From Kofleriaceae bacterium (lineage in GTDB: Bacteria; Myxococcota_A; Polyangia; Haliangiales; Haliangiaceae), in the NCBI GenBank assembly GCA_046597055.1, contig JBKJLC010000083.1:13894-77893 (forward strand): a stretch of 64,000 nt of DNA. Direction: 5' to 3'. The position numbers and the translations under genes were made by a program. How positions within the stretch are numbered: the first letter of the stretch is position 1; the number at the start of each line of letters is the position of its first letter. The notes beneath the pieces were generated by a model, which searched no databases, had not been told where the DNA came from, and worked only from the letters and a program-made list of their open reading frames with translations. Below, in pieces: positions 2,292-27,360 of this stretch.

Positions 2292-2444
2292 GGCCGCCTT
2301 GATACCCGGGCGGGGGGCCCCGGTGACACCAGGGGCTCCTCTCAGTCGATTACGCGGGTTGCTTCCCCGGCATCTCAGGCATCGCACCGACAAACCGAGG
2401 CAGGACGGAGGCTTACGGCCCGGTGAGCCCGGCGGTCGCCCCGG

Positions 2445-3440: not shown

Positions 3441-3450
3441 GGCGCGAGTG

Positions 3451-4113: not shown

Positions 4114-4185
4114 GCAGCGACATGTACCACCGTGCGGGGGTCACGCATCGCGGCATGCTGTCGCGACCCGGGGTAGGCTTGGCCG

Positions 4186-4668: not shown

Positions 4669-4677
4669 CCGGCCGGG

Positions 4678-9069
<4,392 letters not shown>

Positions 9070-9147
9070 ACCGAGCGAACCCTCCGGCCCGCTCGCCCCA
9101 TCATAGTCGCGGAGGCGACCGATTCGCCTGCTGGAGTGCGCTTCATC

Positions 9148-9807
9148 TCACGACGGCGGCAAGCGCTTGATCACCAGGTTGTCGAACCAGGTGTCGGTCT
9201 CCCAGTTGTTGAAGCCGAGGTGGTCGTGGCCGACCCCGGTCAGCGGTTGCGGGTCCTGGTAGCGCAGGAACGGTGTGGCCAGGTCGTCGACGTACCACTC
9301 GATCGTGTCGCGGCGGCGGATGATGCGCCAGTGGTAGCGCTGGTTGGCGACCACCCGCGGCAGCGGGCGCTTGACCATCTCGGTGCCGTGCTCGTCGAGC
9401 CGGGCGATGAACGAGGTCGTGTTCTTCCAGCCGCCCATGCCGATCACGTAGCCGGTCGCGGTGTAGCGGTTGCCGTCGGGGTCGAACGAGCGGCCATCGC
9501 CGAAGACCTCGAGCTTGATGTCGCCGTCGGGCGAGGTCGACCAGGCGTCGAGGTCGATCTGGAGGTCGCCGGCGGGCAGCCGGCGGGCGAGCCACAGCGG
9601 GTGGTTGTGGGCGCCGTGAGCGTTCAGGGCCCCGTCGCGCAGGTGGTAGCCACTGCCGGTCCGGGTCCAGTCCGGCCCGAGCGAAGCCCGGTCGAAGCTG
9701 TCGAGATAGCTCGACTCGATCGGCGGCGACTCGCGGACCTTGCAGGCGGGCGCGAGGCCCCCGAAGGCGACGCAGGCGATGGTGAGGAGGGCGCGGGAGG
9801 CGCGCAT
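9148..9807 (-). CDS. Lipoprotein with a beta-sandwich (lectin/ConA-like) domain
   Basis: ATG at 9807, signal ending GLAPAC; Trp-rich beta pattern ending GFNNWETDTWFDNLVI. Confidence 0.65.
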   Translation of the reverse strand: MRASRALLTIACVAFGGLAPACKVRESPPIESSYLDSFDRASLGPDWTRTGSGYHLRDGALNAHGAHNHPLWLARRLPAGDLQIDLDAWSTSPDGDIKLEVFGDGRSFDPDGNRYTATGYVIGMGGWKNTTSFIARLDEHGTEMVKRPLPRVVANQRYHWRIIRRRDTIEWYVDDLATPFLRYQDPQPLTGVGHDHLGFNNWETDTWFDNLVIKRLPPS

Positions 9808-9925
9808 GGCCGCGACTATGCGCGACCGACCCGGGTCGCGCAAACGTGCGGGGATCCACGTGATCGAAACCATTGTTGATTCCGATCCTGGACCCCAGGG
9901 GATCTCTTCCCGGACCGGGTTTCCG

Positions 9926-9947
9926 TGTCAGAGGCGGCCCTTAGGTT
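9926..9947 (+). promoter_or_regulatory. Candidate DNA-damage promoter motif TGTCAG-N10-TA-N3-T (RecA-NDp/PafBC-like)
   Basis: TGTCAG AGGCGGCCCT TAGGTT ends 10 nt before the exonuclease ORF start. Confidence 0.5.
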
Positions 9948-9956
9948 GGTCGCGAG

Positions 9957-11105
9957 TTGCGGATCGAGTCCCTCACACTACCGTTCGGACGGGAGTATCT
10001 GGAAGCGCCGGTCACGCCGCGCCCGTCCGACCAGGCTCCCTCCCGCGCCCGCCGCCGCGGCCGCGCCAAGCTCGAGTCGGTCGCCCCGACGCCGCTCGAG
10101 GCCGCCACCGTCGTCACCGCGCCCATCACTGCCACTGCCACTGCCACTGCCACTGCCACTGCCACTGCCGCTGCCGCTGCGGGTGCCGCTGCCGCGGCGG
10201 GTGCCGCTGCCGCTGCCGCGGCGGATGCGGGTGCGGCGGCCGCGGCCGCTGCCAATGCCGCGGCCGTCGCCACCCTCCGCCCCCAGGACGGCGTCTACGT
10301 CCTCGACGTCGAGACCACCGGCACCGACCGCCGCCGCGACCAGGTCATCGAGCTCTGCATCCAGTTCGGCCTCGATGACCGCGCTCCCAGCCGCACCTGG
10401 CGCTTCAAGCCCTCGGTCGCGATGTCGCCCGGCGCCCAGGCGGTCCACGGCATCTCGATGGACGACCTCGCCGCCTGCCCGAGCTTCGCCGACTGCGTCG
10501 ACGAGATCGAAGCGATCTTCGCCGACGCCCGCGTGATCGTCGGCTACAACCTCACGTTCGACATCGACATGCTCCAGGCCGAGATGGAGCGCATCAAGCG
10601 GCCCTTGCTCGACGTCAGCGGCAAGACGATCGTCGATCCGTTCCGGCTCTGGCAGCAGTGCGAGCCGCGCAGCCTGCAGCACGCCCACCAGCGGTTCGTC
10701 GGGCAAGGCTTCGAGGCCGCGCACTCGGCCTCGGCCGACGTCGCCGCGACCGGCCGGGTCCTGTCGGGCATGCTGCGCAGCTTCAACCTCGACCACCACG
10801 ACTGGAGCGCGATCGCCACGATCTGCGACCCGCAGCGGTCGAGCTGGGTGGGCCCGTCGCGGCATCTGCGCTGGGAGGGGACCACCATCATCCTCTCGTT
10901 CGGCAAGCACAGCGGCACCCCGCTCCACGAGCTCGACCGCGGCTACCTGCGCTGGGTCGCCGACAAGGACTTTCCGGTCCACGTGACCGTGATCTGCAAG
11001 AAGGCGCTCGAGCTCGCGCCTGACGAGCTGGTCGCGTGGGTGCGCCAGCAGTTCGGCGAGCCGGCCCCGACCGGCGCCCCGCCGTTCGCGGCGCCCGGCG
11101 GGTAG
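9957..11105 (+). CDS. DEDDh 3'-5' exonuclease (DnaQ/ExoX-like) with low-complexity N-terminal linker
   Basis: LDVETTG, VHGI, GYNLTFDI, AHSASADV; C-terminal FGKHSG..GYLRWV; start uncertain (TTG). Confidence 0.88.
   Translation: MRIESLTLPFGREYLEAPVTPRPSDQAPSRARRRGRAKLESVAPTPLEAATVVTAPITATATATATATATAAAAAGAAAAAGAAAAAAADAGAAAAAAANAAAVATLRPQDGVYVLDVETTGTDRRRDQVIELCIQFGLDDRAPSRTWRFKPSVAMSPGAQAVHGISMDDLAACPSFADCVDEIEAIFADARVIVGYNLTFDIDMLQAEMERIKRPLLDVSGKTIVDPFRLWQQCEPRSLQHAHQRFVGQGFEAAHSASADVAATGRVLSGMLRSFNLDHHDWSAIATICDPQRSSWVGPSRHLRWEGTTIILSFGKHSGTPLHELDRGYLRWVADKDFPVHVTVICKKALELAPDELVAWVRQQFGEPAPTGAPPFAAPGG
10131..10178 (+). repeat. In-frame hexamer repeat (GCCACT)6(GCCGCT)2 encoding an Ala-Thr/Ala run
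   Basis: Read directly from the sequence. Confidence 0.95.
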
Positions 11106-11113
11106 CCAACCCG

Positions 11114-11560
11114 TCAGCGCGGGACCCGCGCCGCCAGCTCGTTCGCCGAGATCAGGCCTTCGACGCGCGCGCGCTCGGTGCCATCGGGCGTCAGGAACAG
11201 GACCGTCGGCGTTGCGTGCGCCGACCAGCGATCCTGGAAGGCGAGATCGTCCTCGTCGTTCTCGGTGACGTCGATCCGGACCCGCACCCAGCCTTCGAGC
11301 GCGGCCCGCACGGTCCGGGTCTGGTAGTGGCGAGCGAGCTCCTTGCATGGCGCGCACCAGCTCGCGGTCACGTCGACCATCACGCCTTTCGCGCCCCCCG
11401 CGCGGGCCCGTGCCAGCCCGTGCTCGAGGTCGGTCTCCCAGCGCGGCGCCACGATCGGGCCGGAGCCCGACGCCCGTGGACGAGCTGGAGCATCGCGATC
11501 GCATCCCGCGAGTAACATGGTGGCCGCGAGCACGACCCGGGCGAGCGATGCTGGCGTCAC
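11114..11560 (-). CDS. Thioredoxin-fold lipoprotein
   Basis: Lipobox LAGC; ASWCAPC; TPTVLFL. Confidence 0.85.
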   Translation of the reverse strand: MTPASLARVVLAATMLLAGCDRDAPARPRASGSGPIVAPRWETDLEHGLARARAGGAKGVMVDVTASWCAPCKELARHYQTRTVRAALEGWVRVRIDVTENDEDDLAFQDRWSAHATPTVLFLTPDGTERARVEGLISANELAARVPR

Positions 11561-11982
11561 GGGACGACCGCCGGGGCAGGCGTCGACGGCGACGCGATCG
11601 CGCCCGGCGGCAGGCTCCGGCCGGGCTCGTCGAGCCAGCCGCGGTGCTCCGCGCGCGCGCGGCCGCAGCGCTGGTCCTCGTGCACGCCGTACCCGGCGGA
11701 CGACGCGAGCAGGACGCCCAGGACGCCATACGTGATGCCGAGCCCGCGCACCTCGGCGGGCTCGGGCTCCTCGGGGGCCCCGTTGATCATCGCCGCCGCG
11801 GCGAGGCCGGTCAGGCCAGCGAGGACCGCATCGACGGCGACGGCGAGCCTCCCTTCGGAGCAGGTCGGCAGCTGGTCGCGACGGTAGCCGCTAGGCAGGC
11901 GCTCGACCCCCACGAACGAACAGCCGGTGACGAGCGGGGCGAGGAGGGCGAGCGTGAAGAGACGGCGGGCCGGGAGGCTCAT
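11557..11982 (-). CDS. Hypothetical lipoprotein with two hydrophobic segments
   Basis: MSLPARRLFTLALLAPLVTGC lipobox; stop overlaps the start of the thioredoxin gene. Confidence 0.6.
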   Translation of the reverse strand: MSLPARRLFTLALLAPLVTGCSFVGVERLPSGYRRDQLPTCSEGRLAVAVDAVLAGLTGLAAAAMINGAPEEPEPAEVRGLGITYGVLGVLLASSAGYGVHEDQRCGRARAEHRGWLDEPGRSLPPGAIASPSTPAPAVVP

Positions 11983-12105
11983 ACCGCGCACGTGTCGTCC
12001 GGACCGGTCCGCGGTTGCGTCGCGTTCGTGACGCAGCCGGCCTGCCCTCGCCGTCGGTCCGTGCGATCGTGCCGGCGCGTGTCGCGCGGTCCACGGTCAG
12101 CACGG

Positions 12106-15100
12106 GTGACGACGCCGGCGCTCGAGCGATCGCTGCCGTCGGGGCTGGTGACGCTGGGGCCGGTGGTCGATGGCGGCGTGGTCGCGCACGGCGACGACGA
12201 GCAGGCCGAGCACGAGCTGCTGGGGTTCCTCGCCGAGCACCTGGCGACCCTGCCGCCGGCGCAGGCGGCGCGCTACTTCCTGCCCGAGGGCGTCGAGGTG
12301 ATCACGGTGGAGGTCGCGCTGGATCCCGGCCTGCCGACCCGGCTGCGGCCGCCGCGCCTGGTCGGCGTGGCGTGCGTGGTGGTGCCGCACGGGGTCGGCG
12401 AGCGCAGCGAGGCGACCGGGGGTGGGGACCCTGCCAGCTTCGCTGGTGGGGCGGGGGGCAACCCTCCCGGTGGGATCGACCGGTGGGGCTTCGTGCCGGC
12501 GCTCGACGCGTCGTTCTTCGTGCACCGGCGCGAGGACTTCCTCGAGGTCGCGCGCCGCGAGATCGCCCGGGTCGCCCGCGCCCGTGGGCTCGACGGCGAT
12601 GACTGGCGGCGGGTGTTGCCCGCGCTCGATACCCAGGTGGTCCCGCTCGAGCTGACGGTGCGGTTCGCCGCGGCCACCGAGGCCACCGGCGATCGGCTGG
12701 CGGCCGAGCACAGGCGGGTCGCGGCCGAGGTCCTCGACGCGATCGCGGTGCGGCTGGCCGAGCGGGTGCGCGGCGGCGGCGTCGAGCTGGTCGGCCGCGA
12801 CCGCGAGCTGGCGTCGCTCGACGCGCTGCTCGGTGGCCGCGATCGGCTGTCGGTGCTGCTGAGCGGCGACGAGGCGGTCGGCAAGACCGCGCTGGTGCTG
12901 GCCTGGGCGCGGCGCCACCCGGCCCGGCCGGCGTGGGTGACCTCGGTGGCCCAGCTGGTCGCCGGTGCCTCGGGCTTCGGCGAGGCCGAGGCCCGGATGC
13001 AGTCGATCTTCGGCGCCGCCGAGGCGCTCGACGCGGTGCTGTACTTCGAGGACTTCGGCAGCCTGTTCCGCGAGCGGCCCGAGGAGGGCGGCCTCGACGT
13101 CGCCGCGGTGGTCCGCCGGAACATCGTCGAAGGCCGGGTCCGGGTGGTCGCCGAGATCACGCCGTTCGCGCTCGAGCGCGCCGAGCGTCGCGACGTCGGC
13201 CTGGTCGGCGCGATGACCCGGGTGCCGCTGGCGCCGATGACGCCGGCGCAGGCGCTGGTGGTCGCACGCGCCCACGCCACTCACTGGCGGCGGGCCGAGC
13301 CGCGCCGGCCGCAGCTCGCCGACGCGACGGTGGCGGTCGCGGTCGAGCTGGCGCGGCGCTACCTGCCGTACCGGATGTTCCCGGGCAAGGCGGTGCGGCT
13401 GCTCGACGAGCTGCGATCCGCTCGCGACGGTGCGGTCGGGCTCGACGGCGCGCCACTCGAGCTCGGGCCCGAGGATGCCTACGAAGGGTTCTCGCTGGTC
13501 ACCGGCATTCCCACGTTTCTCCTGCGCGACGACCAGGCGATGCGGGTCGGCGAGCTGGTTGCCCGGCTGCGCACGCGCATGATCGGCCAGGACGTCGCGG
13601 TGCAGCGGGTCGCCGAGACGCTGTGCACGGTGAAGGCGCAGCTGCAGCCGGCCGACAAGCCGCTGGCGACCTTCCTGTTCGTGGGCCCCACCGGCGTCGG
13701 CAAGACCGAGCTGGCGCGCAGCCTCGCGCACCTGCTGTTCGGCGGCGAGGAGCGGCTGGTCCGCTTCGACATGAGCGAGTACGCCGATCCGTGGGCGGCC
13801 GAGCGGCTGATCCGCGGTTCCGGTGACGGCGACGGCCTCCTGACCTCGCGGGTGCGCGAGCAGCCGTTCTCGGTCGTGCTGCTCGACGAGATCGAGAAGG
13901 CGCACCCGGCGGTGCACGATCTGCTGCTCCAGGTCGCAGGCGAGGGCCGGCTCACCGATGCGCGCGGCCGCACCAGCTACTTCCACAACACGATCATCAT
14001 CCTCACGTCGAACCTCGGCGCGCACCACGGCGGCGGCGCGGTCGGCCTGCGCGCGAGCAGCGGCGACGGACGCGAGCGCGAGCTCGGCCGCTATCAGGCG
14101 GCGGTCGCGACCGCCTTTCGGCCCGAGATGCTCAACCGCTTCGACGCGGTGATCGCCTTCCATCGCCTGAGCGAGGCCGAGGTCGCCGACGTCGCGTGCC
14201 TGCAGGTCGCCAGGCTGGCCGACCGGCGCGGGCTGGTCCAGGCCGCGGTCGGGCTCGACGTGAGCGAGCGAGCGCTTGCGGCGCTGGCGGTGGGCGGCTA
14301 CTCGGCCGCGTACGGCGTGCGCGCGCTGCGCCGGCACCTCGATGAGCAGGTGGTGGCGCCGGCCGCGCGGCTGCTGGCCCGGGTCGGCAGCGAGGGCCAC
14401 GGCGGGCTGCTCGCGGTGCGGGTCGACGGCGAGCCGGTCGGGCTCGGGCTGTCCGAGGGCTCGCACCTCGGCACCGTCGCGCCCGCCGCCGGGCCGGTCG
14501 AGGCTCCCGCGTTGCGGGTCAGCCTGTACCGGCGGGTCGGCGCCAGCGCGCGCCGCGGTGCCCAGGGCCTGACCCTGCTCGCCGAGGTCCGGCGGGAGGC
14601 CGACACCTGGCTCGCGCGCGATGTCGCCACCGAGGTGCGAGATCAGGTCAGCTGGCTCGAGGCGCAGCTGGCGCAGACCGACGAGTCGCGCGCTCGCGCG
14701 GGACGCGCGGGCCGGTCCCGGCGCGACGTCGGTGGCAAGGCGCGCAAGGAGGCGCTGTCGGCCGAGCAGCGCCAGCAGATGGCGACCGAGCTGCATCGGC
14801 TGCGGCGCGGCTGGGACGACGCCCACGCGGCGCGCGACGAGATCACCGCGGCCGAGGACCTCGGGCTCGAGGTCGCGCTCGCGGGCGGCGCGATCGAGGA
14901 GGTCGCGGCCATGGCCGGGCCGCTGGCGGCGCGGTTCGCGACCGCGATGTTCTGGCTGGCGGTGGCGCGGCTCGAGCAGCGCGACGCGATCACGCTGGCG
15001 CTGTCGGCGCCCGAGCTGTCGGTGCCGCTGGAGCGCTGGCTCGGCGCGCTCCTGGCCGAGGCCCCGGCCCGGCGCTGGACGATCACCGGGCACCTGACCG

Positions 15101-15603
15101 GCGTGCGCGACCCGGCGGTGGCGTGGCCGGAGTCGCGGGTGTGGGGGCCGCCGCGCTCGGCGGCGTGGCTGTCCGAGCGCCTCGCTGGCGAGGGCGGGAT
15201 CCGCAACGTGCTGCTGCGGGTCCGCGGCCCCGGCGCGGCGTGCCTGCTCGGCCTCGAGGCCGGCACCCATCGCTTCGTCGGCATCGCCAAGGTGAGCCCG
15301 TGCCACCTGGTGGTGCGGCGGATCGCCTTGACCGCCGACTTCGACGACGACGCCTGGCTGCGGGTCGGCGCGCTCGCGGCGCCGGCCCAGCCCGGCAAGG
15401 GCAACTTCGAGCGGCTCCATGCGGCGACCGACCACGTGATGGTCATGGGCCGCCGGGTCGAGGTGGCGTGGCCGCGCTACATGGCGCAGCTCGAGGAGGT
15501 CGGGCTGGCGCGGATCGCGCGCGCGCTCGCCGACGACGAGGCGGTCGCCGACCTGTACCCGATCGAGCTGACCGAGCCGGCCGCGCCCGAGACCGAGGCG
15601 TGA
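12106..15603 (+). CDS. Atypical ClpA/B-like double AAA+ ATPase 1 with C-terminal release-factor-like module
   Basis: GTG at 12106 (approximate); D1 LVGRDREL, GDEAVGKT, VLYFEDF, FPGKAVRLLD; D2 GPTGVGKTE, FDMSEY, LLDEIEKAHP, GRLTD, TSNLG, FRPEMLNR, YGVRALRR; C-terminal GIRNVLLRVRGPGAACLLGLEAGTHRF. Confidence 0.9.
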   Translation: MTTPALERSLPSGLVTLGPVVDGGVVAHGDDEQAEHELLGFLAEHLATLPPAQAARYFLPEGVEVITVEVALDPGLPTRLRPPRLVGVACVVVPHGVGERSEATGGGDPASFAGGAGGNPPGGIDRWGFVPALDASFFVHRREDFLEVARREIARVARARGLDGDDWRRVLPALDTQVVPLELTVRFAAATEATGDRLAAEHRRVAAEVLDAIAVRLAERVRGGGVELVGRDRELASLDALLGGRDRLSVLLSGDEAVGKTALVLAWARRHPARPAWVTSVAQLVAGASGFGEAEARMQSIFGAAEALDAVLYFEDFGSLFRERPEEGGLDVAAVVRRNIVEGRVRVVAEITPFALERAERRDVGLVGAMTRVPLAPMTPAQALVVARAHATHWRRAEPRRPQLADATVAVAVELARRYLPYRMFPGKAVRLLDELRSARDGAVGLDGAPLELGPEDAYEGFSLVTGIPTFLLRDDQAMRVGELVARLRTRMIGQDVAVQRVAETLCTVKAQLQPADKPLATFLFVGPTGVGKTELARSLAHLLFGGEERLVRFDMSEYADPWAAERLIRGSGDGDGLLTSRVREQPFSVVLLDEIEKAHPAVHDLLLQVAGEGRLTDARGRTSYFHNTIIILTSNLGAHHGGGAVGLRASSGDGRERELGRYQAAVATAFRPEMLNRFDAVIAFHRLSEAEVADVACLQVARLADRRGLVQAAVGLDVSERALAALAVGGYSAAYGVRALRRHLDEQVVAPAARLLARVGSEGHGGLLAVRVDGEPVGLGLSEGSHLGTVAPAAGPVEAPALRVSLYRRVGASARRGAQGLTLLAEVRREADTWLARDVATEVRDQVSWLEAQLAQTDESRARAGRAGRSRRDVGGKARKEALSAEQRQQMATELHRLRRGWDDAHAARDEITAAEDLGLEVALAGGAIEEVAAMAGPLAARFATAMFWLAVARLEQRDAITLALSAPELSVPLERWLGALLAEAPARRWTITGHLTGVRDPAVAWPESRVWGPPRSAAWLSERLAGEGGIRNVLLRVRGPGAACLLGLEAGTHRFVGIAKVSPCHLVVRRIALTADFDDDAWLRVGALAAPAQPGKGNFERLHAATDHVMVMGRRVEVAWPRYMAQLEEVGLARIARALADDEAVADLYPIELTEPAAPETEA
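12400..12477. repeat. Palindromic REP-like element apparently inserted in frame in ATPase 1
   Basis: Hairpins CCCTGCCAGC-TTC-GCTGGTGGGG (12429-12451) and CGGGGGG-CAAC-CCTCCCG (12452-12469); unusual T-ending codons. Confidence 0.55.
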
Positions 15604-18600
15604 GGCGCACGCTCGCGATCGCGGTCTACGAGCACCGGGTGGACTCCAAGGTCACCTGGTGGCCGCTGGTCCCGCGCGCGTGGGGCGGGCCGATCACCGG
15701 CACCAGCGAGGTCCGCATGCGCGAGGAGTTCGGCAAGCTGGTGCGCGAGGCGCTGCGCCTGGTCGATCCCGCCGAGCACGAGCTGTGGGACGCGCCGCCC
15801 GGCCTGCGCCTGCACCGGCTCCACCTCGATCTGGCGACCCAGGGCCCCAACCCGAAGCGGGTGGCCGGGTCGTTCCCGCTGATCCTCGAGCCGCGCTGGT
15901 TCACCGACGAGCGGCAGCGGCTGCTCGCGTATCACCCGCGCGATCGGTCCGCGTGGTTCGACGCCGACGATCTTGCCGAGGCGGAGGTGCTGGCGCCCCA
16001 CTTCGCCCGCAAGGCCTGGGCGGCGCTCGACGCCGACCAGCTCGAGGAGCTCAAGGTCACCGGCAAGGATCGCCTGCTGGTGGTGTCGTACAGCGTCGAG
16101 CCGACCTCGCTGCTCGATCGGCTCAAGCCCGAGGCGACCGAGCGCGGTCGCGCCGGCCTCGGCCGCGCCACCCGCCGGGTGCTCGGCGACCTCGCGGTCG
16201 ACCAGACCGCGCGCGCGATCGACCGGACCCTGCCGATCGGCGAGCCGCGCGAGCCGTATCGCGGCCAGCTCGGGCGCCTGCTCGGTGGCGACCGGCCGCG
16301 CTCGACCGTGCTGATCGGTCGTCCGGGATCCGGACGGTCGACCCTGCTCGCGCGCTGGGTCGACGATCGGCTGGCCGAGGATGGCTGGTTCCTGCACCGC
16401 AACGCCGATCGCATCCACCGGGTGTGGCGGCTGTCGGGCAAGCGGCTGATCGCCGGCATGCAGTACTTCGGCGACTGGGAGGCGCGCTGTCTCGACGTGG
16501 CCGAGGACGCGCGCAAGCACCGCGGGATCCTGTGGTTCGACGACCTCCACCTGTTCGGGAGGCTCGGCATCACCCGCCAGTCCGAGCGCAGCTTCGCCGA
16601 CTTCTTCCGGGGCCCGGTCCAGCGCGGCGAGCTGGTGGTGATCGGCACCGCGACCCGCGAGCAGCTGGCGCGGCTCGAGGACGACGCGCCCGCGTTCGCC
16701 GGCCTGTTCACGCGGATCGCGATCGAGCCGACCACCGCCGAGCAGACCCGCGCGCTCCTGCTGGCCGAGGTTCGCCGGCTCGAGCGCGAACATCCGGTCG
16801 CGATCCACCCGTTCGTGCCGCGCACGGTGGCCGAGCTGGCGTCGGCGCTGTGGGCGTGGACGGCGGCGCCCGGGGCCGCGGTCGAGCTGCTGCGCAAGCT
16901 GGTCGCGTGGCGGCTGGCGGCCCAGTCGACCGAGGAGGGCGGCGAGCGGCTCGAGATCGGCCCCCGCGACGCGGTCACCCTGGCCGCGCGCGAGACCGGC
17001 CTGCCCGAGCACCTGATCACCCTCGACCAGCCGCTCGACCCGGCCGCGGTCGAGGCCCACTTCGCGGCCCGCGTGATCGGTCAGGACGAGGCGGTCGCGG
17101 TCGCCACCGAGGTGGTGCTCAAGGTCCGCGCCGGCCTGACCGACGCCAGCCGGCCGCTCGGCGTCTACCTGTTCACCGGGCCGACCGGCACCGGCAAGAC
17201 CGAGCTGGCGACCGCGCTCGCCGAGTACCTCTACGGGGATCCGAAGCGGCTCCTGCGCTTCGACATGAGCGAGCTGTCGGGACCCGATGCGGTCGCGCGC
17301 CTCATCGGCGACCGGTTCGCGCCCGAGGGGCTCTTGACCCAGCGCATCCGCGAGCAGCCGTTCGCGGTCGTGCTGCTCGACGAGATCGAGAAGGCCCACC
17401 CGGCGGTGCTGGCGCTCTTGCTCCAGCTGTTCGACGAGGGCCGGCTCACCGACGCGGCGGGCGACGCGGCCAGCTTCCGCCACGCCGTGATCGTGATGAC
17501 CTCGAACCTCGGTGCCAAGGTGGCGGCGCCGATCGGCTTCGGCGACGGCGCCGCGGTGGTGATGGGCGACATCGCGCGCGCGGTGCGGGAGTTCTTCCCG
17601 CCCGAGCTGTGGAACCGCATCGATCAGGTCGTGCGGTTCCGGCCGCTCACGCCCGAGGTCGCGGCCCGGGTGGTCGACAAGGAGCTGGCCAAGCTGCTCG
17701 GCCGCCGCGGCCTGCGCGAGCGCAACGTGTTCGTCTACGCCGGGCGGGCGATCCGCGAGCGCGCGGTCGCGCAGGCGTTCGACAGTCGCTACGGCGCGCG
17801 CACGGTCAAGCGCTGGCTCGAGGACCACGTCGCGACCCGGCTGGCCGAGGCGCTCACCACCGCGCCGCCGGCCCGGATGACGGTCGCGCGCCTGCGCGAG
17901 GACGGCGCCACCGTCGGGGTCGACCTCGAGGTGCTGGCCGAGGTCGAGTCGCTGCCCGGCGACTACCCGATGGCCGAGCTGCGCGAGCTGTCGGCGTCGG
18001 CCCTGGTGCCGCACGCCGAGGCGATGGCCGACGAGATCGACCAGGTCCTGGCGAGCCGCGAGCTGATCGCGCAGGAGGAGGCCGCGCGCACCGGTCCGCG
18101 CGCCGCCGAGGTCCGCTACTACGCCGAGGGCTATCGCGACGAGCTGCTGCGGATGCGGACGATCCTGGTCGGGCAGGGGCCCCCGGCCCGCGCCGGGCGC
18201 ACGCTCGAGGAGTCGGATGACGAGCTCACCCACGATCTCGAGGTCCACGATCGCGAGTCGGTGATCCACCAGTCCTCGTACCGGCGCGGCTACGTCGAGT
18301 CGAAGATCCGCTTCGACCGGCGCAGCCTCGGCCGCGGCGCGCAGCGGTTCGATCAGCGGACCGGGCTCGAGGCGCTGGCGCGGGCGCGGCTCCTGATCGA
18401 TCACGTCGGCGAGCTCGCCGATCCTGACGCTCACGTGGTGACGGTCGAGCTGGCCGCGGTCGGCCGCGGGGTGGCGAGCTGGAGCCTGGCCCGGGTGCTG
18501 GCGTCGCTGCCCCACGACGAACTGGCGGTCCGGACCCGGGATGGTCGGGTCACCACGACCACGCCGGTCGCCGGTGCCCACGTGGTCCACGCGGTGCTGG

Positions 18601-18989
18601 TGGTGCGCGAGCTGTTCGCCGCGCCGGCGCTGGTGGCCGAGCACGGCAGCCACGTGTTCCAGTCGCTCGCGGGCGAGCCCGAGATCGTGCGGGTGTCGGT
18701 CACGCCGGGGCCAGCCGAGCCGCGCGCGCGGGTGCGCGCGCACGAGGTGGCGCTGGCCGGCTTCGAGGCGGCGGTCGCGGCGGGCCAGCCCGGGATCAAC
18801 CCCGAGCCGCTGTTGCCGGTGGTGCGGGTGCTGTCGATCGCGCCGGCGCCGCGCCCCGGTCAGCCGATGACGGTCGACGTCGAGGACTTCATCACCGGGT
18901 TCACCGGCCGGCTGTCGGTGCCCAACGAGCTGGCGGCGATCAACGGCTGCCGCGAGATCCGCTGGAGTCGGGTCGGAGGTCGGCGATGA
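15600..18989 (+). CDS. Atypical ClpA/B-like double AAA+ ATPase 2 with IGF loop and divergent release-factor-like C-terminus
   Basis: GTGA overlap with ATPase 1 stop; D1 GRPGSGRS, ILWFDDL; D2 GPTGTGKTE, LLDEIEKAHP, APIGFG, YGARTVKR; C-terminal AEHGSHVF and VVRVL..VEDFITG. Confidence 0.9.
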   Translation: MRRTLAIAVYEHRVDSKVTWWPLVPRAWGGPITGTSEVRMREEFGKLVREALRLVDPAEHELWDAPPGLRLHRLHLDLATQGPNPKRVAGSFPLILEPRWFTDERQRLLAYHPRDRSAWFDADDLAEAEVLAPHFARKAWAALDADQLEELKVTGKDRLLVVSYSVEPTSLLDRLKPEATERGRAGLGRATRRVLGDLAVDQTARAIDRTLPIGEPREPYRGQLGRLLGGDRPRSTVLIGRPGSGRSTLLARWVDDRLAEDGWFLHRNADRIHRVWRLSGKRLIAGMQYFGDWEARCLDVAEDARKHRGILWFDDLHLFGRLGITRQSERSFADFFRGPVQRGELVVIGTATREQLARLEDDAPAFAGLFTRIAIEPTTAEQTRALLLAEVRRLEREHPVAIHPFVPRTVAELASALWAWTAAPGAAVELLRKLVAWRLAAQSTEEGGERLEIGPRDAVTLAARETGLPEHLITLDQPLDPAAVEAHFAARVIGQDEAVAVATEVVLKVRAGLTDASRPLGVYLFTGPTGTGKTELATALAEYLYGDPKRLLRFDMSELSGPDAVARLIGDRFAPEGLLTQRIREQPFAVVLLDEIEKAHPAVLALLLQLFDEGRLTDAAGDAASFRHAVIVMTSNLGAKVAAPIGFGDGAAVVMGDIARAVREFFPPELWNRIDQVVRFRPLTPEVAARVVDKELAKLLGRRGLRERNVFVYAGRAIRERAVAQAFDSRYGARTVKRWLEDHVATRLAEALTTAPPARMTVARLREDGATVGVDLEVLAEVESLPGDYPMAELRELSASALVPHAEAMADEIDQVLASRELIAQEEAARTGPRAAEVRYYAEGYRDELLRMRTILVGQGPPARAGRTLEESDDELTHDLEVHDRESVIHQSSYRRGYVESKIRFDRRSLGRGAQRFDQRTGLEALARARLLIDHVGELADPDAHVVTVELAAVGRGVASWSLARVLASLPHDELAVRTRDGRVTTTTPVAGAHVVHAVLVVRELFAAPALVAEHGSHVFQSLAGEPEIVRVSVTPGPAEPRARVRAHEVALAGFEAAVAAGQPGINPEPLLPVVRVLSIAPAPRPGQPMTVDVEDFITGFTGRLSVPNELAAINGCREIRWSRVGGRR

Positions 18990-21292
18990 CCCGGCCGAGC
19001 TTCCGCGTGTTCTTCACCGAGCACGACAACGGCAAGGTGTCGGGCGTCGTGATCCGCCGCCGCGAGCTGGTGTTCGACCCGCCGCCGCCGGCAGCGTGGG
19101 GCGACGGCCAGGACGACGTGCTGGCCGCGCTCGAGCCAGGCTTGACCGCCGCGGTCGCCGAGGACGGCCCGGGCCGCTACCTGTTCACCGAGGACCTCGA
19201 GCTGCGCCGGGTGGCGGTCGAGGTCCGGCCCCGGGTGGCCGCCGATGGCGCCTGGGTGCTCGGCAGCCGCACCATCCCGGTCCGGATCGGCTTCGCCGCG
19301 TTCGCCGAGGTCACCGCCGGCACCAGCGCCGGGCGGGCCGCGACCGACGGCGGCTTTCGCGTGCTGGTCCCGCGCCATCGCTGGTCGCTGGTGCTCGAGA
19401 GCCTCGACGACGCCGCCGAGGTGCTGCGCCACGCGGTGTTCGCCGCGATGCTCGGCGACACGCCGGCGAGCGTGTTCGACTTCCGCGCCGGCGTCCGCGA
19501 GTGGATCGAGGTCTGGGAGCTGCCGCACCTGGCCGCGGCCGACGATGAGGCGCAGGAAGCCGAGCCGCCGCCGCCGCCGACCCTGGCCGCGGTCGCCGAG
19601 GACTGGAGCCGCAAGATCCAGCGCAAGCAGCTGGTGCCGCCGGTCGGCGATCCACCGGGCGCGACCGCGCTGGTGGTCGCGCTCGAGCGCACCCCACCAC
19701 GCTCGGTGCTGCTGGTCGGCGACAGCGGGGTCGGCAAGACCGCGATCGTGCGCCGCGCCGCCAAGCACCTCGCCGAGCGGAGCAAGGGCAAGGACAGCGA
19801 GCCGCGGCGGCTGTGGGCGACCTCGGCCGGCCACGTCACCGCCGGCATGGTCTACCTCGGCATGTGGCAGGACCGTTGCCTCACGCTCGCGCGCGAGCTG
19901 TCAGCGACCGAGGACTGGCTGTACGTCGATCGCCTGGTCGACCTGCTGGCGCCGCAGCCCGACGGCGCCAGCATCGCCGACCTCCTGGCCCCGGCGGTGG
20001 TCGCCGGCGAGCTGCGCATGATCGCCGAGGCGTCGGAGTCCGAGCTGGCCCGGTGCCGCCGCCGCAACCAGGCGTTCGTCGACGCGTTCGAGGTGATCCG
20101 CGTCGACGAGCCCGGGCCCGACCAGGTGATCCCGATGCTGGTCACCCACCAGCACCGCAAGGACCCCGAGGTCACCTGGCACCCGGGCGCGCTGCGCCGC
20201 GCGATTGCGCTGCTCGCCGGGTTCCGCCGCGATCTGCGCTTTCCCGGCAAGGCGTTCGGCTTCCTCGACTGGTGGAACCAGGACGCGCACAAGCCGCCGC
20301 GCCAGGTGCGGCCCGGTGACGTCGCCGCCGCCTACGCCCGCTGGTCGGGCCTGCCGATCGAGCTCATCACCGACGAGCGCCCGACCGGGCCGGCCGAGAT
20401 CGCGGCGGCGCTGCGCGCCGGCGTGGTCGGTCAAGACGCCGCGTGCGCGGTGGTCGCGCGGGCGCTGGCGCGCTTCAAGGTCGGCCTCGACGATCCCGAG
20501 CGACCGGTCGCCTCACTGCTGTTCGCCGGCCCGACCGGCGTCGGCAAGACCGAGCTCGCCAAGCAGATCGCGACCTACCTGTTCGGCGCCGGCGACCGCC
20601 TGGTCCGCATCGATCTGTCCGAGTACATGACGCCCGGCGCGGCCGGCCGTCTGCTCGAGGTCGGCAGCGGCGCGACCTCGCTCGCCGAGCAGGTCCGGCG
20701 CCAGCCGCTGTGCGTGGTCCTGCTCGACGAGATCGAGAAGGCGCACCCCGAGGTGTTCGACCTCCTGCTCGGCGTGCTCGGCGAGGGCCGGCTCACCGAC
20801 ACCATGGGTCGCCTGGTCGACTTCCGCATGGCGGTCATCGTGATGACCTCGAACCTCGGCGCCGGCGGCCGTGCCGCGCCCGGCTTCGGCGCGGACGCGC
20901 TCCCCGACCACGCCGCCGCGGTCCGGGCCCACTTCCGGCCCGAGCTGATCGGTCGGCTCGATCACGTCGTGTCGTTCCGCAGCCTGTCACCGGCCGACAT
21001 CGAGCGCATCGTCGACCTCGAGCTGGCCAAGATCCGCCGCCGGCCCGGCCTCGTGCAGCGCGGCCTGACCCTGCGGCTGTCGACCCCGGCGCGCGCCTGG
21101 CTCGCGAGCCACGGCTTCGACGCCGGCATGGGCGCCCGACCCCTGCGCCGGCTGCTCGAGGAGGTCGTGGTCGCGCCGCTCGCCGTCCGCATGGCCGGCG
21201 ATCCCGGCCTGCGCGACCGCCTGCTCGGCATCGTCACGGCCGGCGAGGCGGCCGGGGCCGGGGTGGACGAGCTGATCGTCCTGCCGGCGTGA
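18986..21292 (+). CDS. Atypical ClpA/B-like double AAA+ ATPase 3 (no C-terminal extension)
   Basis: ATGA overlap with ATPase 2 stop; D1 GDSGVGKT, WLYVDRL, FPGKAFGFLD; D2 GPTGVGKTE, LLDEIEKAHP, GARPLRR. Confidence 0.92.
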   Translation: MTRPSFRVFFTEHDNGKVSGVVIRRRELVFDPPPPAAWGDGQDDVLAALEPGLTAAVAEDGPGRYLFTEDLELRRVAVEVRPRVAADGAWVLGSRTIPVRIGFAAFAEVTAGTSAGRAATDGGFRVLVPRHRWSLVLESLDDAAEVLRHAVFAAMLGDTPASVFDFRAGVREWIEVWELPHLAAADDEAQEAEPPPPPTLAAVAEDWSRKIQRKQLVPPVGDPPGATALVVALERTPPRSVLLVGDSGVGKTAIVRRAAKHLAERSKGKDSEPRRLWATSAGHVTAGMVYLGMWQDRCLTLARELSATEDWLYVDRLVDLLAPQPDGASIADLLAPAVVAGELRMIAEASESELARCRRRNQAFVDAFEVIRVDEPGPDQVIPMLVTHQHRKDPEVTWHPGALRRAIALLAGFRRDLRFPGKAFGFLDWWNQDAHKPPRQVRPGDVAAAYARWSGLPIELITDERPTGPAEIAAALRAGVVGQDAACAVVARALARFKVGLDDPERPVASLLFAGPTGVGKTELAKQIATYLFGAGDRLVRIDLSEYMTPGAAGRLLEVGSGATSLAEQVRRQPLCVVLLDEIEKAHPEVFDLLLGVLGEGRLTDTMGRLVDFRMAVIVMTSNLGAGGRAAPGFGADALPDHAAAVRAHFRPELIGRLDHVVSFRSLSPADIERIVDLELAKIRRRPGLVQRGLTLRLSTPARAWLASHGFDAGMGARPLRRLLEEVVVAPLAVRMAGDPGLRDRLLGIVTAGEAAGAGVDELIVLPA

Positions 21293-21323
21293 GTGCCGGG
21301 CAGGCTCGCAGTACGTTGGTTCG

Positions 21324-21635
21324 ATGGAAGCGGACGACGAGCTCCCCGAGCTGCTCAAACGGGTTCGAAATCGGTCAACCTTCCTGGTGTTCGTTCGAGC
21401 ACTCGAACGGGATCGACGCGCGGCAGCCGAGCTGGAACGCGCCTCGCCGTCATCGCCGTACGGTCCCGGCGCCCGCGGCTGGGAGAACGGTACGATCGAG
21501 AGCTTTCTCGAGTCGGCGGTGGGCTGGGCCGAGGACGTGATGCCGCTCCGGGGCGCGCGAGCGGCCTGGTTTCCCGCTGCGCCCTCGTGGGCGGCGTTCG
21601 CGCGGTTTCTCTACATGGGCAAGCTCTACGAGTAG
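21324..21635 (+). CDS. Small hypothetical helical protein (WENxTIxxFLE..PSW..FA..L..GKLYE)
   Basis: Protein-like 103-aa ORF; codon usage less GC-skewed than its neighbours. Confidence 0.7.
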   Translation: MEADDELPELLKRVRNRSTFLVFVRALERDRRAAAELERASPSSPYGPGARGWENGTIESFLESAVGWAEDVMPLRGARAAWFPAAPSWAAFARFLYMGKLYE

Positions 21636-22084
21636 CCGGACGCCGACCTCGGTCAGAGGGGGCCCGCAGGGTTGAACCCATCTCGATGTGATCAAAGACG
21701 TCCCTCTTTTCCGGATTCTCTGAGCCGGTGCGAAGCGCCGTCGTCGGGCAGCGGGCAGCGGGCAGCCGGCAGCGGGCCGAGCATCGAGTTGCCCTCGAAG
21801 CCGTTCCTCTTTCCGGTCGCCATCCTGGGCGAGGCGGCGAACTCGTCGGGGAGATCGGCCCGGATCTCGGGCGGCTGGCGGAAGTCGCGGTGCCGCGTTG
21901 GCCTGCGAGAGTGGCGCGAGGGGCCACGGGTTCGGCCGGTCAGCAGCGCGATCAGAACGACCGCGGCCACCGCGGACACGTGCGCCTCCCGCGGGCCGGG
22001 CCAGGGACGACCGCCGACGCATGGCAGGGCGCACGGGCCCGTGGTGGTGCCGGGATGCCGCCTGGCGCCAGCGACCGCGGTGGC

Positions 22085-22810
22085 CTATGGCGCGGGCCCC
22101 GGCACCTCGCGCGGATCGATCGGGCCGTGCCGTCGCCAGCCGACCCTGAGCAGCCAGCTCGAGGCCGGCACCACCGGTAGCGGCTCCCCGCCCATCGCGG
22201 CTCCTGACGGCACGGTGCCCGGACGCCAGCCGTCGAAGCGGAGCCCGCTGGAGTACGGATCGACCTGGGCCCGGCGCTGGGCGCCGCCGCCGAGGTCCTC
22301 GCGATGCCGCCGCCAGTTGTTGATGACGTAGCAGAGCGCGTGACGTGCCTGCCGCGGCGTGCGGATGACCGTGACGTGATATCGCGACAGGAAGACCTGG
22401 CCGCGGTGTGGTCGCGCCAGCCGGCGGTCGCGCGTGATCGCCTGGTTGAGCAAGCGTGCCGCCGAGATCTCGAAACCCTGCATGCCGCGCGCGAGCGCGC
22501 GCTCGTCGTCGGCCTCGACCAGCAGGTGGACGTGATTGTGCTGGATGCTGATGTGCACGATGCGGAAGTCATGGCGCGGTAGCGTCGTGAGCATCGCGCG
22601 ACGGAGCGCCTGGTAGGCACTGCGGCGGCGGAGCCGACCGACCTCGCGGCTCACCGCCAGGACGACATGGACCGGCTGGGCGGGCGTGATGGGCGCGCGC
22701 TTGCGGACGCGCTGGTGCGGGCGTCGGCCGGCTGCGGGCTTGCGGCCGGCGCCGGGCCGGCGACCGCCGTGGGTCCGGAACTCGAGCGTGGTCTGCCGCG
22801 AGGCCGCCAT
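22085..22810 (-). mobile_element. REP-associated tyrosine transposase (RAYT, HUH/Y1 family)
   Basis: ATG at 22810; HGGRRPGAGRK, PVHVVL, SIQHNHVHLLVEA (HUH), GQVFLSRYH, YVINNWRRH, DPYSSG. Confidence 0.85.
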
Positions 22811-22824
22811 TCTTGATTGCACCG

Positions 22825-22852
22825 ATATTATCAGGTTGCTGGTTCTGGTCAA
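22825..22852 (-). promoter_or_regulatory. Candidate sigma70 promoter of the RAYT gene
   Basis: Minus strand TTGACC-N16-TAATAT with TG extension, 14 nt upstream of the ATG, in an AT-rich patch. Confidence 0.5.
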
Positions 22853-22960
22853 TGAGCGATGGCAGGATCGCGAACAGCACGGTTTGGCCTCGATCGTGTG
22901 CACCCGGCAGGCCTTGTTCGGGGCGGCGTGCTGAGGTGGGCGGCATGGTGCTCGTGGCTG

Positions 22961-23129
22961 GGCTGTGGACTTGACGCGCCTGTGGAGAGCGCGCCTGCCG
23001 ACGCGTGCGCCGCGAGCGGGCAGGGAGCGCCGGCGCGACCCCGCACAGGCGCTTGGAAAGCCGCGCCTTCGGGTCGTGGGCATGCGGAGTCGCGGTTGGT
23101 GGGCGCGCCTTTCCACAAGGCCCACAGCC
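22961..23129. other. Structured non-coding element (three-way junction)
   Basis: Stems GGCTGTGG/CCACAGCC, GCGCCTGTG/CACAGGCGC and TGGAAAG/CTTTCCA, with inner CGCGCC/GGCGCG pairs. Confidence 0.65.
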
Positions 23130-23204
23130 GTGCCGACCCCTCACCCTGATCAAAAACTTTCCGGATCCGGAGCGATGCGGGGAGGATCCCAGCGCGGCAT
23201 CCCA

Positions 23205-23252
<48 letters not shown>

Positions 23253-23260
23253 GCGGATGG

Positions 23261-24729
<1,469 letters not shown>

Positions 24730-24733
<4 letters not shown>

Positions 24734-25937: not shown

Positions 25938-27296
<1,359 letters not shown>

Positions 27297-27360
27297 CCCG
27301 GCTGGCAGACCACGGTAACGGCACCCGACCGCGGTCGCGGACGGCTATACTCATGCGAGC

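Follow-up and report, generated by a model that had tools for sequence, protein, structure and literature searches.

Known Hsp100 proteins are homo-hexamers. In Pex1/Pex6 and other hetero-hexameric type II AAA+ rings, paralogous double-ring subunits combine a first AAA+ module (D1) that does not hydrolyse ATP with an active second module (D2), a likeness to the proteins described here. Pairing of an ATPase with a relative of the translation release factors (RFs) has been described as well: according to passages of PMC6514570, Dom34 lacks the catalytic Gln, and Vms1 binds the double-ring AAA+ protein Cdc48. The locus analysed in this work lies in a stretch of 64,000 nucleotides from a Kofleriaceae bacterium (the window) and contains three Clp-like genes, A, B and C. 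They encode double-AAA+ proteins with a degenerate D1 and an intact set of D2 ATPase motifs, and the products of A and B end in RF-like tails.

The positions of the genes and of their segments are listed in Table 1. A, B and C are open reading frames whose translation contains no internal stops, and the start of A matches the N-termini of its orthologs in the alignment. A GAGG sequence is located shortly 5' of the A/B junction and a GGAGG sequence 7 nt 5' of the B/C junction. Translation, the Pfam and NCBIfam matches and the reading of the junctions confirmed the first-pass annotation, which had described three paralogous double-AAA+ genes joined by GTGA and ATGA overlaps. Its statement that no clpP, clpS or T6SS gene is adjacent also held for the neighbours of A-B-C in the window; the ClpP of the same genome is encoded on a different contig. 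An Rfam scan of positions 9000-24000 gave no matches, and a promoter and terminator scan gave nothing exceeding shuffled sequences. An IS200-like ORF is present downstream of the three genes in the window.

Table 1. Positions (in the window) of the three genes, their segments and their junctions
Feature	Positions	Strand	Description
Gene A	12106-15603	+	1165 aa; N-domain, degenerate D1, active-type D2, RF-like tail; Pfam and NCBIfam matches
Gene B	15600-18989	+	1129 aa; N-domain, D1, active-type D2, RF-like tail
Gene C	18986-21292	+	768 aa; N-domain, D1, active-type D2, without tail
A N-domain	12106-12759	+	about 218 aa, without Pfam family
A D1 AAA+ module	12862-13560	+	motif alignment
A D2 AAA+ module	13657-14379	+	AAA_2 residues 518-681, D2-small 688-758
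A tail	14386-15600	+	405 aa; modelled class-I release-factor fold, domains 1, 2 and 4, without GGQ domain
GTGA overlap, A stop / B start	15600-15603	+	read in sequence: gcGTGAgg
B tail	17865-18986	+	374 aa; homology to A tail
ATGA overlap, B stop / C start	18986-18989	+	read in sequence: gcgATGAcc
C N-domain	18986-19642	+	219 aa; confident AF2 model

In all three proteins Pfam AAA_2 was matched at E of about 1e-39 and ClpB_D2-small at E values between 6e-7 and 2e-15. The D1 modules matched AAA_16 and AAA, and AAA_lid_9 was seen solely as a 34-residue fragment, in A. The ClpA model aligned to A, B and C in a single stretch spanning D1 and D2, whereas ClpB models matched in two stretches, and a ClpB middle domain was not found. 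Clp_N gave no match at E <= 0.01 with the whole proteins and none at E <= 10 with the N-domains alone. The absence of a Clp-N repeat and of a ClpB middle domain, which had been noted from the sequence, was thus borne out by the Pfam and NCBIfam searches. The best scores of A, B and C (208-331 bits) are far below the cut-offs of the NCBIfam ClpA, ClpB and ClpV models (885-1232); against the ClpA models alone the scores were 208-300 bits, with cut-offs of 993 and 1350.

The motif alignment agreed with the earlier description of a degenerate first and an intact second ring. The D1 Walker A motif reads GKT in A and C and GRS in B, and the D1 Walker B motif reads FED (A), FDD (B) and VDR (C) in place of hhhhDE. 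The Walker B Asp-Glu pair of D1 was found in none of the 56 A, B and C rows and the RRF arginine motif was absent, whereas the ClpA and ClpB of the same genome carry both. In D2 the Walker A, Walker B, sensor 1 and sensor 2 motifs are intact in A, B and C. A feature that goes beyond the initial sequence reading is the loss of the D2 pore loop: the segment corresponding to GAPPGYVG is 5-6 residues shorter in the three proteins and lacks Tyr-Val-Gly. This argues against classical hand-over-hand threading through D2. Of the three, B alone has a pore-loop aromatic in D2 (13 of 19 rows), the copy in the window included. The Tyr of the D1 pore loop was found in all 20 C rows, in 16 of 19 B rows and in one of 17 A rows; the A loop in the window reads SGFG. 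The losses of motifs differ from paralog to paralog.

A loop of the form h-G-F/L, aligned to the LGF of the genome's own ClpA, occurs in B (19/19), C (20/20) and A (15/17); in the window it reads VGL (A), IGF (B) and PGF (C). The ClpB of the same genome lacks the segment that holds the loop. Since this ClpA-type loop is kept in all three paralogs, ClpP may still be a partner despite the lack of an adjacent clpP gene. The loop could be an ancestral remnant.

The first-pass annotation had called the C-terminal tails release-factor-like. For A this was supported both by the fold and by profile comparison. The AF2 model of the A tail (pLDDT 92.3, pTM 0.87) gave 37 Foldseek matches in the PDB at E <= 1e-3, the best being mtRF1 (7.7e-8), followed by RF2 and RF1. 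In the VIA comparison rows 1-41 were all class-I release factors. RF1 (1rq0_A) was aligned over 239 residues with Z 13.6 and rmsd 4.3, and RF2 over 262-269 residues with Z 12-12.8, the latter involving residues 58-382 of the model. A profile of 20 A tails matched RF2 among the PDB sequences at E 1.9e-7, and release factors made up 23 of the 30 matches listed for this profile. The match to RF2 covers domain 1, continues into the beginning of domain 2 and aligns the E-G-x-HR strand. Pfam PCRF scored 14.8 bits on the A tail of the window, below the gathering cut-off of 24. In the ESM Atlas the nearest clusters were PCRF-bearing, with scores of 0.78-0.84, below the lead level of 0.9.

The part of RF1 that carries the hydrolase is missing from the A tail. 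Residues 197-386 of the model were aligned by VIA to residues 102-349 of RF1 with just 153-161 positions, and about 90 RF residues had no counterpart in the model. Across 59 A, B and C proteins no GGQ motif is conserved. No Pfam RF-1 domain was detected on the window contig, and the five matches of the genome are all on other contigs. As modelled, the A tail consists of RF domains 1, 2 and 4 without the GGQ domain. The RF-like character of the tails, which was the pointer to the ribosome in the first-pass annotation, was thereby structurally verified for A.

For the B tail the relationship to release factors is indirect, through its homology to the A tail, which was detected by hhalign of the profiles (75%, E 2.5e-5, 217 columns). 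Pfam PCRF did not match the B tail, and among the PDB sequences B-tail profiles matched no release factor and picked up coiled-coil or dehydrogenase noise only. With BLASTP no match between the two tails was obtained. Both the link between the two tails and that between the A tail and RF2 needed alignments deeper than eight sequences: with 8-sequence profiles, hhalign related the tails significantly neither to one another nor to P0008, and the A-tail match in the PDB was marginal (E 0.033). The codon-reading loop is apparently shorter than that of RF2. Within the genus, [SDT]PCH stands immediately behind the HRF strand of the tail, a sequence that is not conserved in distant three-gene sets. 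Set against the presumed site of SPF in RF2, the tails appear to conserve neither this tripeptide nor PxT. Because the codon-reading loop of the release factors does not appear to be conserved, stop-codon reading by the tail cannot be assumed.

The unusual N-terminus said to be shared by the three proteins was confirmed for A and B, whose N-domains are homologous (hhalign 95%, E 1.8e-8). It was not confirmed for C: the hhalign comparison of the B and C N-domains was not significant, with the possible handicap that the C alignment also held full-length rows. The A N-domain had no Pfam match at E <= 10, and the copy in the window contains a Gly-rich insertion. The AF2 model of the C N-domain (pLDDT 83.8, pTM 0.76) gave nothing at E <= 1e-3 with Foldseek against the PDB. 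Its best match in the wide VIA search was the HicB N-domain, with 76 aligned residues and a weak Z of 6.2, which falls below the best Z of 7-8 that is usual for models without a clear Foldseek match; dsRBD-like rows were also among the matches. Complex prediction of the three N-domains (654 residues) gave scores of 0.00, 0.41 and 0.18 in its runs, which speak neither for nor against an assembly.

A, B and C were found on a single contig in 12 of 16 genomes of the same genus, and in the other four the set is broken by contig ends. The three genes are present also in another genus and in another family, and 12 of 13 newly fetched loci had A-B-C in the same order. In the survey of neighbourhoods for conserved triplets, which the first-pass annotation had suggested, all three genes stood together in 48 of the 54 loci that had enough upstream DNA to be informative. 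The gene order A-B-C, start/stop overlaps of 4 nt (or 1 nt) and the layout with tails on A and B and none on C are kept across at least six families. Of the 401 genomes sampled from the phylum, 16 carry an A-type tail, and the distribution is limited to this one phylum. The cultured Archangium gephyra and A. lansingense (L092, L100) carry all three genes. No conserved neighbours were found across families, where only the abundant Ser/Thr kinases clustered, which suggests that the three genes form a self-contained module.

In a quick tree of the paralogs, A, B and C separated into three clades, and each clade had a single member from any one genome. Rows L004_A, L005_A, L006_A, L015_A and L015_B, which are fragmentary or frameshifted, and rows L008_C, L010_B and L016_C, for which the motif anchor failed, were left out of this tree, and the outgroup row, a 366-aa ORF, was disregarded. 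As judged from these sequences, the paralogy of A, B and C is ancient. Six loci have C apart from A-B, about 27-30 kb away or on another contig, and in the L013 lineage an A-like gene is alone in the fetched stretch. The A-B pair was present elsewhere in the genome in all five genomes with unlinked C that were tested. The candidate module put forward in the first-pass annotation, dedicated, stoichiometric and pointing to the ribosome, is partly supported, by comparative evidence (order, overlaps, layout, clades, motif losses that differ between the paralogs, and persistence of A-B where C is unlinked). The loci with separate C and the solitary A-like gene indicate that a fixed three-part stoichiometry is not universal.

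The preferred, though still tentative, explanation is that A, B and C form a co-functioning and probably heteromeric motor, derived from ClpA and docked on the ribosomal A site by RF tails that have lost the hydrolase. The layout of the genes, their motifs, the fold of the A tail, the conservation and the co-occurrence are observed; the hetero-oligomer, the binding to ribosomes and any link with ClpP are inferred. The three proteins would be ancient, co-inherited double-ring subunits of ClpA descent that act together, most likely in one mixed ring or at least as an A-B core with C. The first ring, which would bind nucleotide and is not built for hydrolysis, might serve for assembly and for contact with the substrate; the retention of the D1 pore-loop Tyr in B and C is adduced for the latter role. 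The second ring would be the ATP-driven motor. The tails of A and B appear to keep those parts of the release factor that in RF1 and RF2 sit at the decoding centre and the stalk. Because domains 1, 2 and 4 are kept and the GGQ hydrolase domain is lost, docking at the A site or the factor-binding site is proposed. The targets would plausibly be ribosomes that are stalled or have a vacant A site. The motor could then remodel or extract the nascent chain, a bound factor or the subunit interface, and the substrate might be passed to ClpP by way of the retained h-G-F/L loops.

It is conceivable, if unlikely, that the tails are derived from release factors and have been repurposed: in a specialised chaperone or disaggregase peculiar to myxobacteria with large genomes, they would serve for oligomerisation, regulation or client binding and make no contact with the ribosome. 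A machine with a degenerate D2 pore loop and a catalytically degenerate D1 is atypical anyway; the tails do not appear to conserve the codon-reading loop found in RF2, and the occurrence in one phylum counts for this explanation as well. The strong divergence of the A and B tails, related through profiles and not by BLASTP, fits relaxed or changed constraints. Against repurposing, the RF scaffold is preserved in full, with domains 1, 2 and 4 (Z 12-13.6 over about 260 residues), and two paralogs have long retained it, as has a distinct family of about 900 aa with Pfam-significant PCRF. Moreover, loss confined to the catalytic domain is seen in paralogs of the factors that bind the ribosome and do not hydrolyse, Dom34 being an example in passages of PMC6514570. 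Another, rather improbable explanation takes the operon and its overlaps as a means of co-expression only, with A, B and C forming unmixed homo-hexamers that act serially or in parallel in one pathway. The homo-hexameric state of the known Hsp100 proteins counts for it, as do the six loci with distant or separately located C, the single A-like gene in the fetched stretch of one lineage and the existence of a single-gene relative of about 900 aa. It is opposed by the one-to-one co-inheritance across families, by the start/stop overlaps kept at both junctions and by the pore loops: A and C lack the D2 aromatic and A mostly lacks the D1 Tyr, so that all-A rings would grip the substrate poorly.

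The possibility that the genes constitute a conflict or defence module, in which the RF-like tails would serve to decoy or sense effectors that phages or competitors direct at translation, with the ATPase as the response arm, is considered remote. The patchy phyletic spread (16/401 genomes sampled), the downstream IS200-like ORF, the weak similarity of an N-domain model to the N-domain of the HicB antitoxin (Z 6.2) and partial PADLOC AAA matches to the candidate systems PDC-M37B and DolB are compatible with such a role. However, the PADLOC matches cover the generic D2 ATPase core only, the genes are accompanied neither by an effector gene, such as one for a nuclease or protease, nor by a conserved neighbour, and no phage-related context was found in the window. 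The paralog trees broadly follow family membership, which, as the tree is read here, suggests mostly vertical inheritance.

If the tails of the preferred ribosome-docked motor do bind ribosomes, a Clp/Hsp100 unfoldase would be physically linked to the bacterial decoding site; no bacterial rescue or quality-control pathway with such a link was found described in the literature searched. The machine would then be the bacterial parallel to the teaming of an RF paralog with an ATPase in eukaryotes. Whatever the function, the locus offers three Hsp100 paralogs that naturally co-evolve and have their motifs divided among them. With a non-catalytic D1, a D2 without the pore loop and an aromatic in one paralog, it provides a test case for the division of labour in mixed AAA+ rings. 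The cultured Archangium carriers and the confident model of the isolated tail make the system testable.

The first-pass annotation knew of no characterised system of this kind. For the printed literature this agrees with the outcome here: a full-text search, outside which fell subscription journals and supplements, found no description of a Clp-RF fusion or of the three-gene operon, and Clp, ClpB and PCRF had no occurrence in the searched passages of PMC6514570. It has to be qualified for the databases, where a related family exists, unnamed and likewise uncharacterised. Its members, single-gene Clp-PCRF proteins of about 900 aa from Polyangiaceae and Myxococcales MAGs (P0230-P0255), score 57-66 bits with Pfam PCRF (cut-off 24) and have no RF-1 domain listed. 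Like A and B they have a Clp core of D1 and D2 that leads into an RF-like tail without GGQ. They differ in having no N-domain, D1 beginning near residue 30, and they are not paralogs of the genes in the window, in whose genome no member of the family was found.

Among the characterised systems, ClpA and ClpC, unfoldases of Hsp100 class I which dock on ClpP, resemble A, B and C in having two AAA+ modules per chain and no middle domain, AAA_2 and D2-small in D2, and h-G-F/L at the LGF site. The three proteins differ from them by the lack of Clp_N, in place of which there is another N-domain of about 220 aa, by the absence of the D1 Walker B Glu, of RRF and of GYVG in D2, by the 400-aa RF-like tails on A and B, and by comprising three obligate paralogs instead of one gene. 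The A tail has the fold of domains 1, 2 and 4 in common with RF1 and RF2; it differs in the missing GGQ domain, the apparently shortened codon loop and the fusion to the C-terminus of an AAA+ motor. PrfH, a truncated relative which matched the A tail at Z 8.6-8.9 (VIA), keeps the GGQ domain and lacks domain 1. Pex1/Pex6 are eukaryotic, belong to another AAA+ clade and comprise two paralogs, not three, and the mixed ring of A, B and C is a predicted one. The functional analogy proposed here is with Dom34/Pelota-ABCE1 and Vms1-Cdc48, in which, according to passages of PMC6514570, an RF paralog that probes the A site is paired with an ATPase doing mechanical work. Those factors, which adopt the unrelated archaeo-eukaryotic eRF1 fold, are proteins of their own, whereas A and B carry a bacterial-type RF fold fused to a Clp motor. 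By this analogy the locus might, though this is doubtful, encode a bacterial counterpart of the Dom34-ABCE1 or Vms1-Cdc48 principle, which would be a new class of machine for ribosome rescue and quality control and the first natural hetero-oligomeric Hsp100: a hetero-hexameric Clp motor whose GGQ-less RF probes would enter the A site of stalled or vacant ribosomes and whose D2 would extract the nascent chain or a trapped factor or split the ribosome, possibly feeding ClpP.

Genes A, B and C, three paralogous double-AAA+ Clp-type genes, lie head to tail on the + strand of the window, whose G+C content is ~74%. The sequence GTGA is common to the stop of A and the start of B, and ATGA to the stop of B and the start of C; a Shine-Dalgarno-like GAGG or GGAGG lies upstream of both junctions. 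In the alignment of A N-domains with orthologs (A8), the start of A matched orthologous N-termini from other families. The same alignment revealed a ~27-residue Gly/Pro-rich insertion in the window's A protein that is missing from the orthologs of other genomes. Close protein relatives found by database matching were labelled Kofleriaceae, Myxococcales or Deltaproteobacteria MAGs.

Coordinates of genes A, B and C and of surrounding features (positions in the window; last row, positions in locus L013)
Feature	Position	Strand	Length	Source
Gene A	12106-15603	+	1165 aa	translation
Gene B	15600-18989	+	1129 aa	translation
Gene C	18986-21292	+	768 aa	translation
Gly/Pro-rich insertion, A N-domain	12370-12460		~27 residues	alignment A8
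DEDDh exonuclease	9957-11105	+		
Exonuclease-to-A gap	11106-12105		~1 kb	
IS200-like ORF	22085-23125	-		
Kinase / sigma-54 activator surroundings	4678-9069	-		
Kinase / sigma-54 activator surroundings	23261-24880	-		
Kinase / sigma-54 activator surroundings	25950-29861	+		
Kinase / sigma-54 activator surroundings	25938-27296	-		
Lone A-like gene	1578-6439			

Neighbouring genes in the window code for a DEDDh exonuclease, a 241-aa protein, Ser/Thr kinases and a sigma-54 activator, and an IS200-like ORF also lies nearby. Their annotation agrees with the first-pass annotation in that no clpP, clpS or T6SS gene is found among them; the ordinary ClpA-like, ClpB and ClpP genes of the same genome are all located on other contigs. 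The exonuclease upstream of A (RNase T-type, with a weak QSregVF_b match) is kept beside the operon only within the genus (loci L005 and L007) and is not conserved there in other families. In the gap between the exonuclease and A the reading frame of A is open from 11269, and the gap yielded no family match, no counterpart in orthologs and no promoter-like site. The ORF directly downstream of C gave a weak match to IS200-like Y1 transposases (E 3e-8); the ~800 bases separating it from C had no family match. The locus is flanked by several Ser/Thr protein kinases, one with AAA_16 and TPR regions, and by an FHA-domain sigma-54 activator; such surroundings are typical for myxobacterial genomes.

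An ortholog of C was present in all 16 genomes of the same genus. Three matches ~3.4 kb apart on one contig were found in 12 of these; in the remaining four the locus is cut by contig ends. A-B-C also occurs in one further genus of the family; it was not found in the seven other genera of the family that were searched. Another family of the order has a distant form (~40% core identity) with an identical layout (tail, tail, no tail) and 1-nt overlaps (TGATG). In an even sample of the phylum the A-type tail was detected in 16 of 401 genomes (12 of 254 genera), and 12 of 13 newly fetched loci had the tandem order A-B-C, mostly with 4-nt overlaps. The exception (L013, from genome G238 of another class of the phylum) carries a lone A-like gene with a release factor (RF)-like tail. 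Its start is overlapped by 4 nt by the stop of a preceding 447-aa ORF that matched no Pfam family, and neither B nor C was present within the 20 kb fetched.

The neighbourhood survey proposed in the first-pass annotation showed that the triplet is conserved. A C-specific pore-loop pattern, run against a single genome of each species, yielded 229 confirmed stretches, and linkage was judged in those 54 of the best 80 that had enough upstream DNA. All three genes were present in 48 of the 54 loci (one with a frameshifted A) and C was alone in six. An A-B pair was found elsewhere in all five genomes tested of these six; in two split-operon genomes C and A-B are, to judge by the lengths of the contigs and the ranges fetched, apparently on the same contig, ~27-30 kb apart. 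The split arrangement, with A-B adjacent and C elsewhere (loci L063, L090, L091, L095, L101, L103 and L107-L111), occurs in one lineage of Polyangiales- and Myxococcaceae-labelled MAGs. The cultured Archangium gephyra and A. lansingense hold A, B and C (L092, L100). No other gene was found to be kept beside A-B-C across families.

In a quick maximum-likelihood tree, from which eight rows were left out and whose outgroup included one incorrect ORF, A (15 rows) and C (16 rows) each formed a single clade with support of 100, and B lay on one side of a branch with support of 85. Each clade had one member per genome. The triplication is therefore older than the divergence of at least five families, and all three copies have been retained since. 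The distant-family copies formed long branches outside the A, B and C clades.

All three proteins matched AAA_2 (E ~1e-39) and ClpB_D2-small, and the ClpA model aligned with each in a single stretch across the first and second AAA+ rings (D1 and D2). With 208-331 bits they score far below the curated cut-offs for ClpA, ClpB and ClpV (885-1232), and domain-model matches included neither a Clp_N nor a middle domain. From 21 loci, 56 A, B and C proteins were aligned with the ordinary ClpA and ClpB of the window's genome. The Asp-Glu pair of the D1 Walker B is absent throughout (ED, DD or similar in A, DD or ED in B, mostly DR in C) and the RRF arginine motif is gone from D1; the D1 Walker A Lys is retained except in B of the window's genus, which has GR. 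D2 has intact Walker A, Walker B, sensor 1 (TSN) and sensor 2 (GAR) motifs, and the early description of a degenerate first and an intact second ring was thus correct. The D2 pore loop, GAPPGYVG, is 5-6 residues shorter and no longer has the Tyr; an aromatic occurs there only in B (13/19 rows; A 0/17, C 0/20). The D1 pore-loop Tyr is present in C (20/20) and B (16/19) and in one of 17 A rows. Where the ordinary ClpA has its LGF loop, an h-G-F/L motif was found in B (19/19), C (20/20) and A (15/17); the ordinary ClpB does not have the segment holding this loop. Motif and alignment evidence together suggest that A, B and C derive from a ClpA/ClpC-like ancestor, and are compatible with a ClpP partnership.

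The three proteins had been thought to share an unusual N-terminus. This holds for A and B, whose N-domains hhalign shows to be homologous (95%, E 1.8e-8), but the comparison of B with C gave no significant match. The C N-domain was modelled confidently (pLDDT 83.8) and had no convincing structural relative, the best match being the HicB N-domain with Z 6.2, a value in the range of ordinary noise.

The claim that the tails, the regions of A and B beyond D2, resemble release factors was at first doubtful, since Pfam PCRF reached just 14.8 bits for the A tail, under its cut-off of 24, and did not match the B tail. For A, it was then borne out by fold and profile. The predicted fold of the 405-aa A tail (89-row alignment) had a pLDDT of 92.3 and a pTM of 0.87. 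A Foldseek search of the PDB found 37 hits at E <= 1e-3, with mtRF1, RF2 and RF1 at the top, and rows 1-41 of a VIA search were class-I release factors: RF1 (1rq0_A) aligned with Z 13.6 and rmsd 4.3 over 239 residues, RF2 entries with Z 12-12.8 over 262-269 (model residues 58-382), and PrfH with Z 8.6-8.9. Three long helices (53-165) resemble RF domain 1, and an alpha/beta unit (201-314 plus 343-382) resembles domains 2 and 4. Just one short helix separates the strand at 306-314 from that at 343, and RF1 102-349 aligned with model residues 197-386 at only 153-161 positions, indicating that ~90 RF residues, the GGQ domain, have no counterpart. No conserved GGQ motif was found among 59 A, B and C proteins collected. 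By sequence alone, a 20-sequence A-tail profile matched RF2 (E 1.9e-7). The B-tail profile (19 sequences) matched the A-tail profile with 75% probability (E 2.5e-5, 217 columns, including the E-G-x-H strand), so that the B tail appears RF-like indirectly, through this homology. Against 1.84 billion representatives an A-tail profile hit 204 clusters at E <= 1e-3; most listed matches were 1100-1190 aa long with the tail at ~750-1140, and the shorter matches are likely to be fragments. Pfam RF-1 matched the window's genome five times, each time outside the window's contig. Three of these matches (contigs C210, C157 and C181) are genes with the RF-1 (GGQ) domain beyond RF1 and RF2, and several release-factor-type rescue factors may coexist there with A-B-C.

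Database protein P0008 (1080 aa) combines a C-like N-domain with a Pfam-significant PCRF tail. It led to a single-gene family of ~900 aa (P0230-P0255) in Polyangiaceae and Myxococcales MAGs, in which D1, from near residue 30, is followed by D2 and PCRF (57-66 bits), with no N-domain and no RF-1 domain. P0008 and P0230 have 100% identical tails, and P0008 appears to be chimeric, with an N-domain and D1 of C type joined to a D2 and tail from this family. The family indicates that a Clp core fused to a GGQ-less RF module is a wider theme of the phylum.

A-B-C is a self-contained ancient module of three ClpA-derived paralogs. By their motifs, D1 is non-catalytic, D2 is catalytic and lacks the classical pore loop, and pore aromatics are retained in a paralog-specific way; two of the three subunits bear RF-fold tails without the hydrolase domain, that of B as predicted from homology. 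In the simplest view A, B and C would act together in one mixed ring; the rival arrangement is three separate homo-hexamers, and the separability of C from A-B is a caution against over-reading.

The tails may target the A site or factor-binding region of the ribosome, where RF1 and RF2 bind through domains 1, 2 and 4. Dom34, which is a paralog of release factors and lacks the catalytic Gln, yet acts on stalled ribosomes (PMC6514570). The motor might there extract a nascent chain or trapped factor, split the subunits, or deliver to ClpP. The same caution applies here, as the RF codon-reading loop appears not to be conserved in the tails, D2 has no GYVG, and the B tail is linked to RFs only by way of the A tail. 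Competing explanations are that the tail was repurposed on a specialised chaperone, or that A-B-C is a conflict system with the RF as a decoy.

Full-text literature searches found no description of a Clp-RF fusion or of the three-gene operon, and the main text of a comprehensive survey of release-factor evolution contains no occurrence of Clp, ClpB or PCRF (PMC6514570). Database labels for these proteins are only "AAA family ATPase" or "ClpC". There is a realistic chance that A-B-C represents a new kind of ribosome-associated machine. The Clp motor and the RF fold are each known; what is new is their fusion and the three-paralog organisation.
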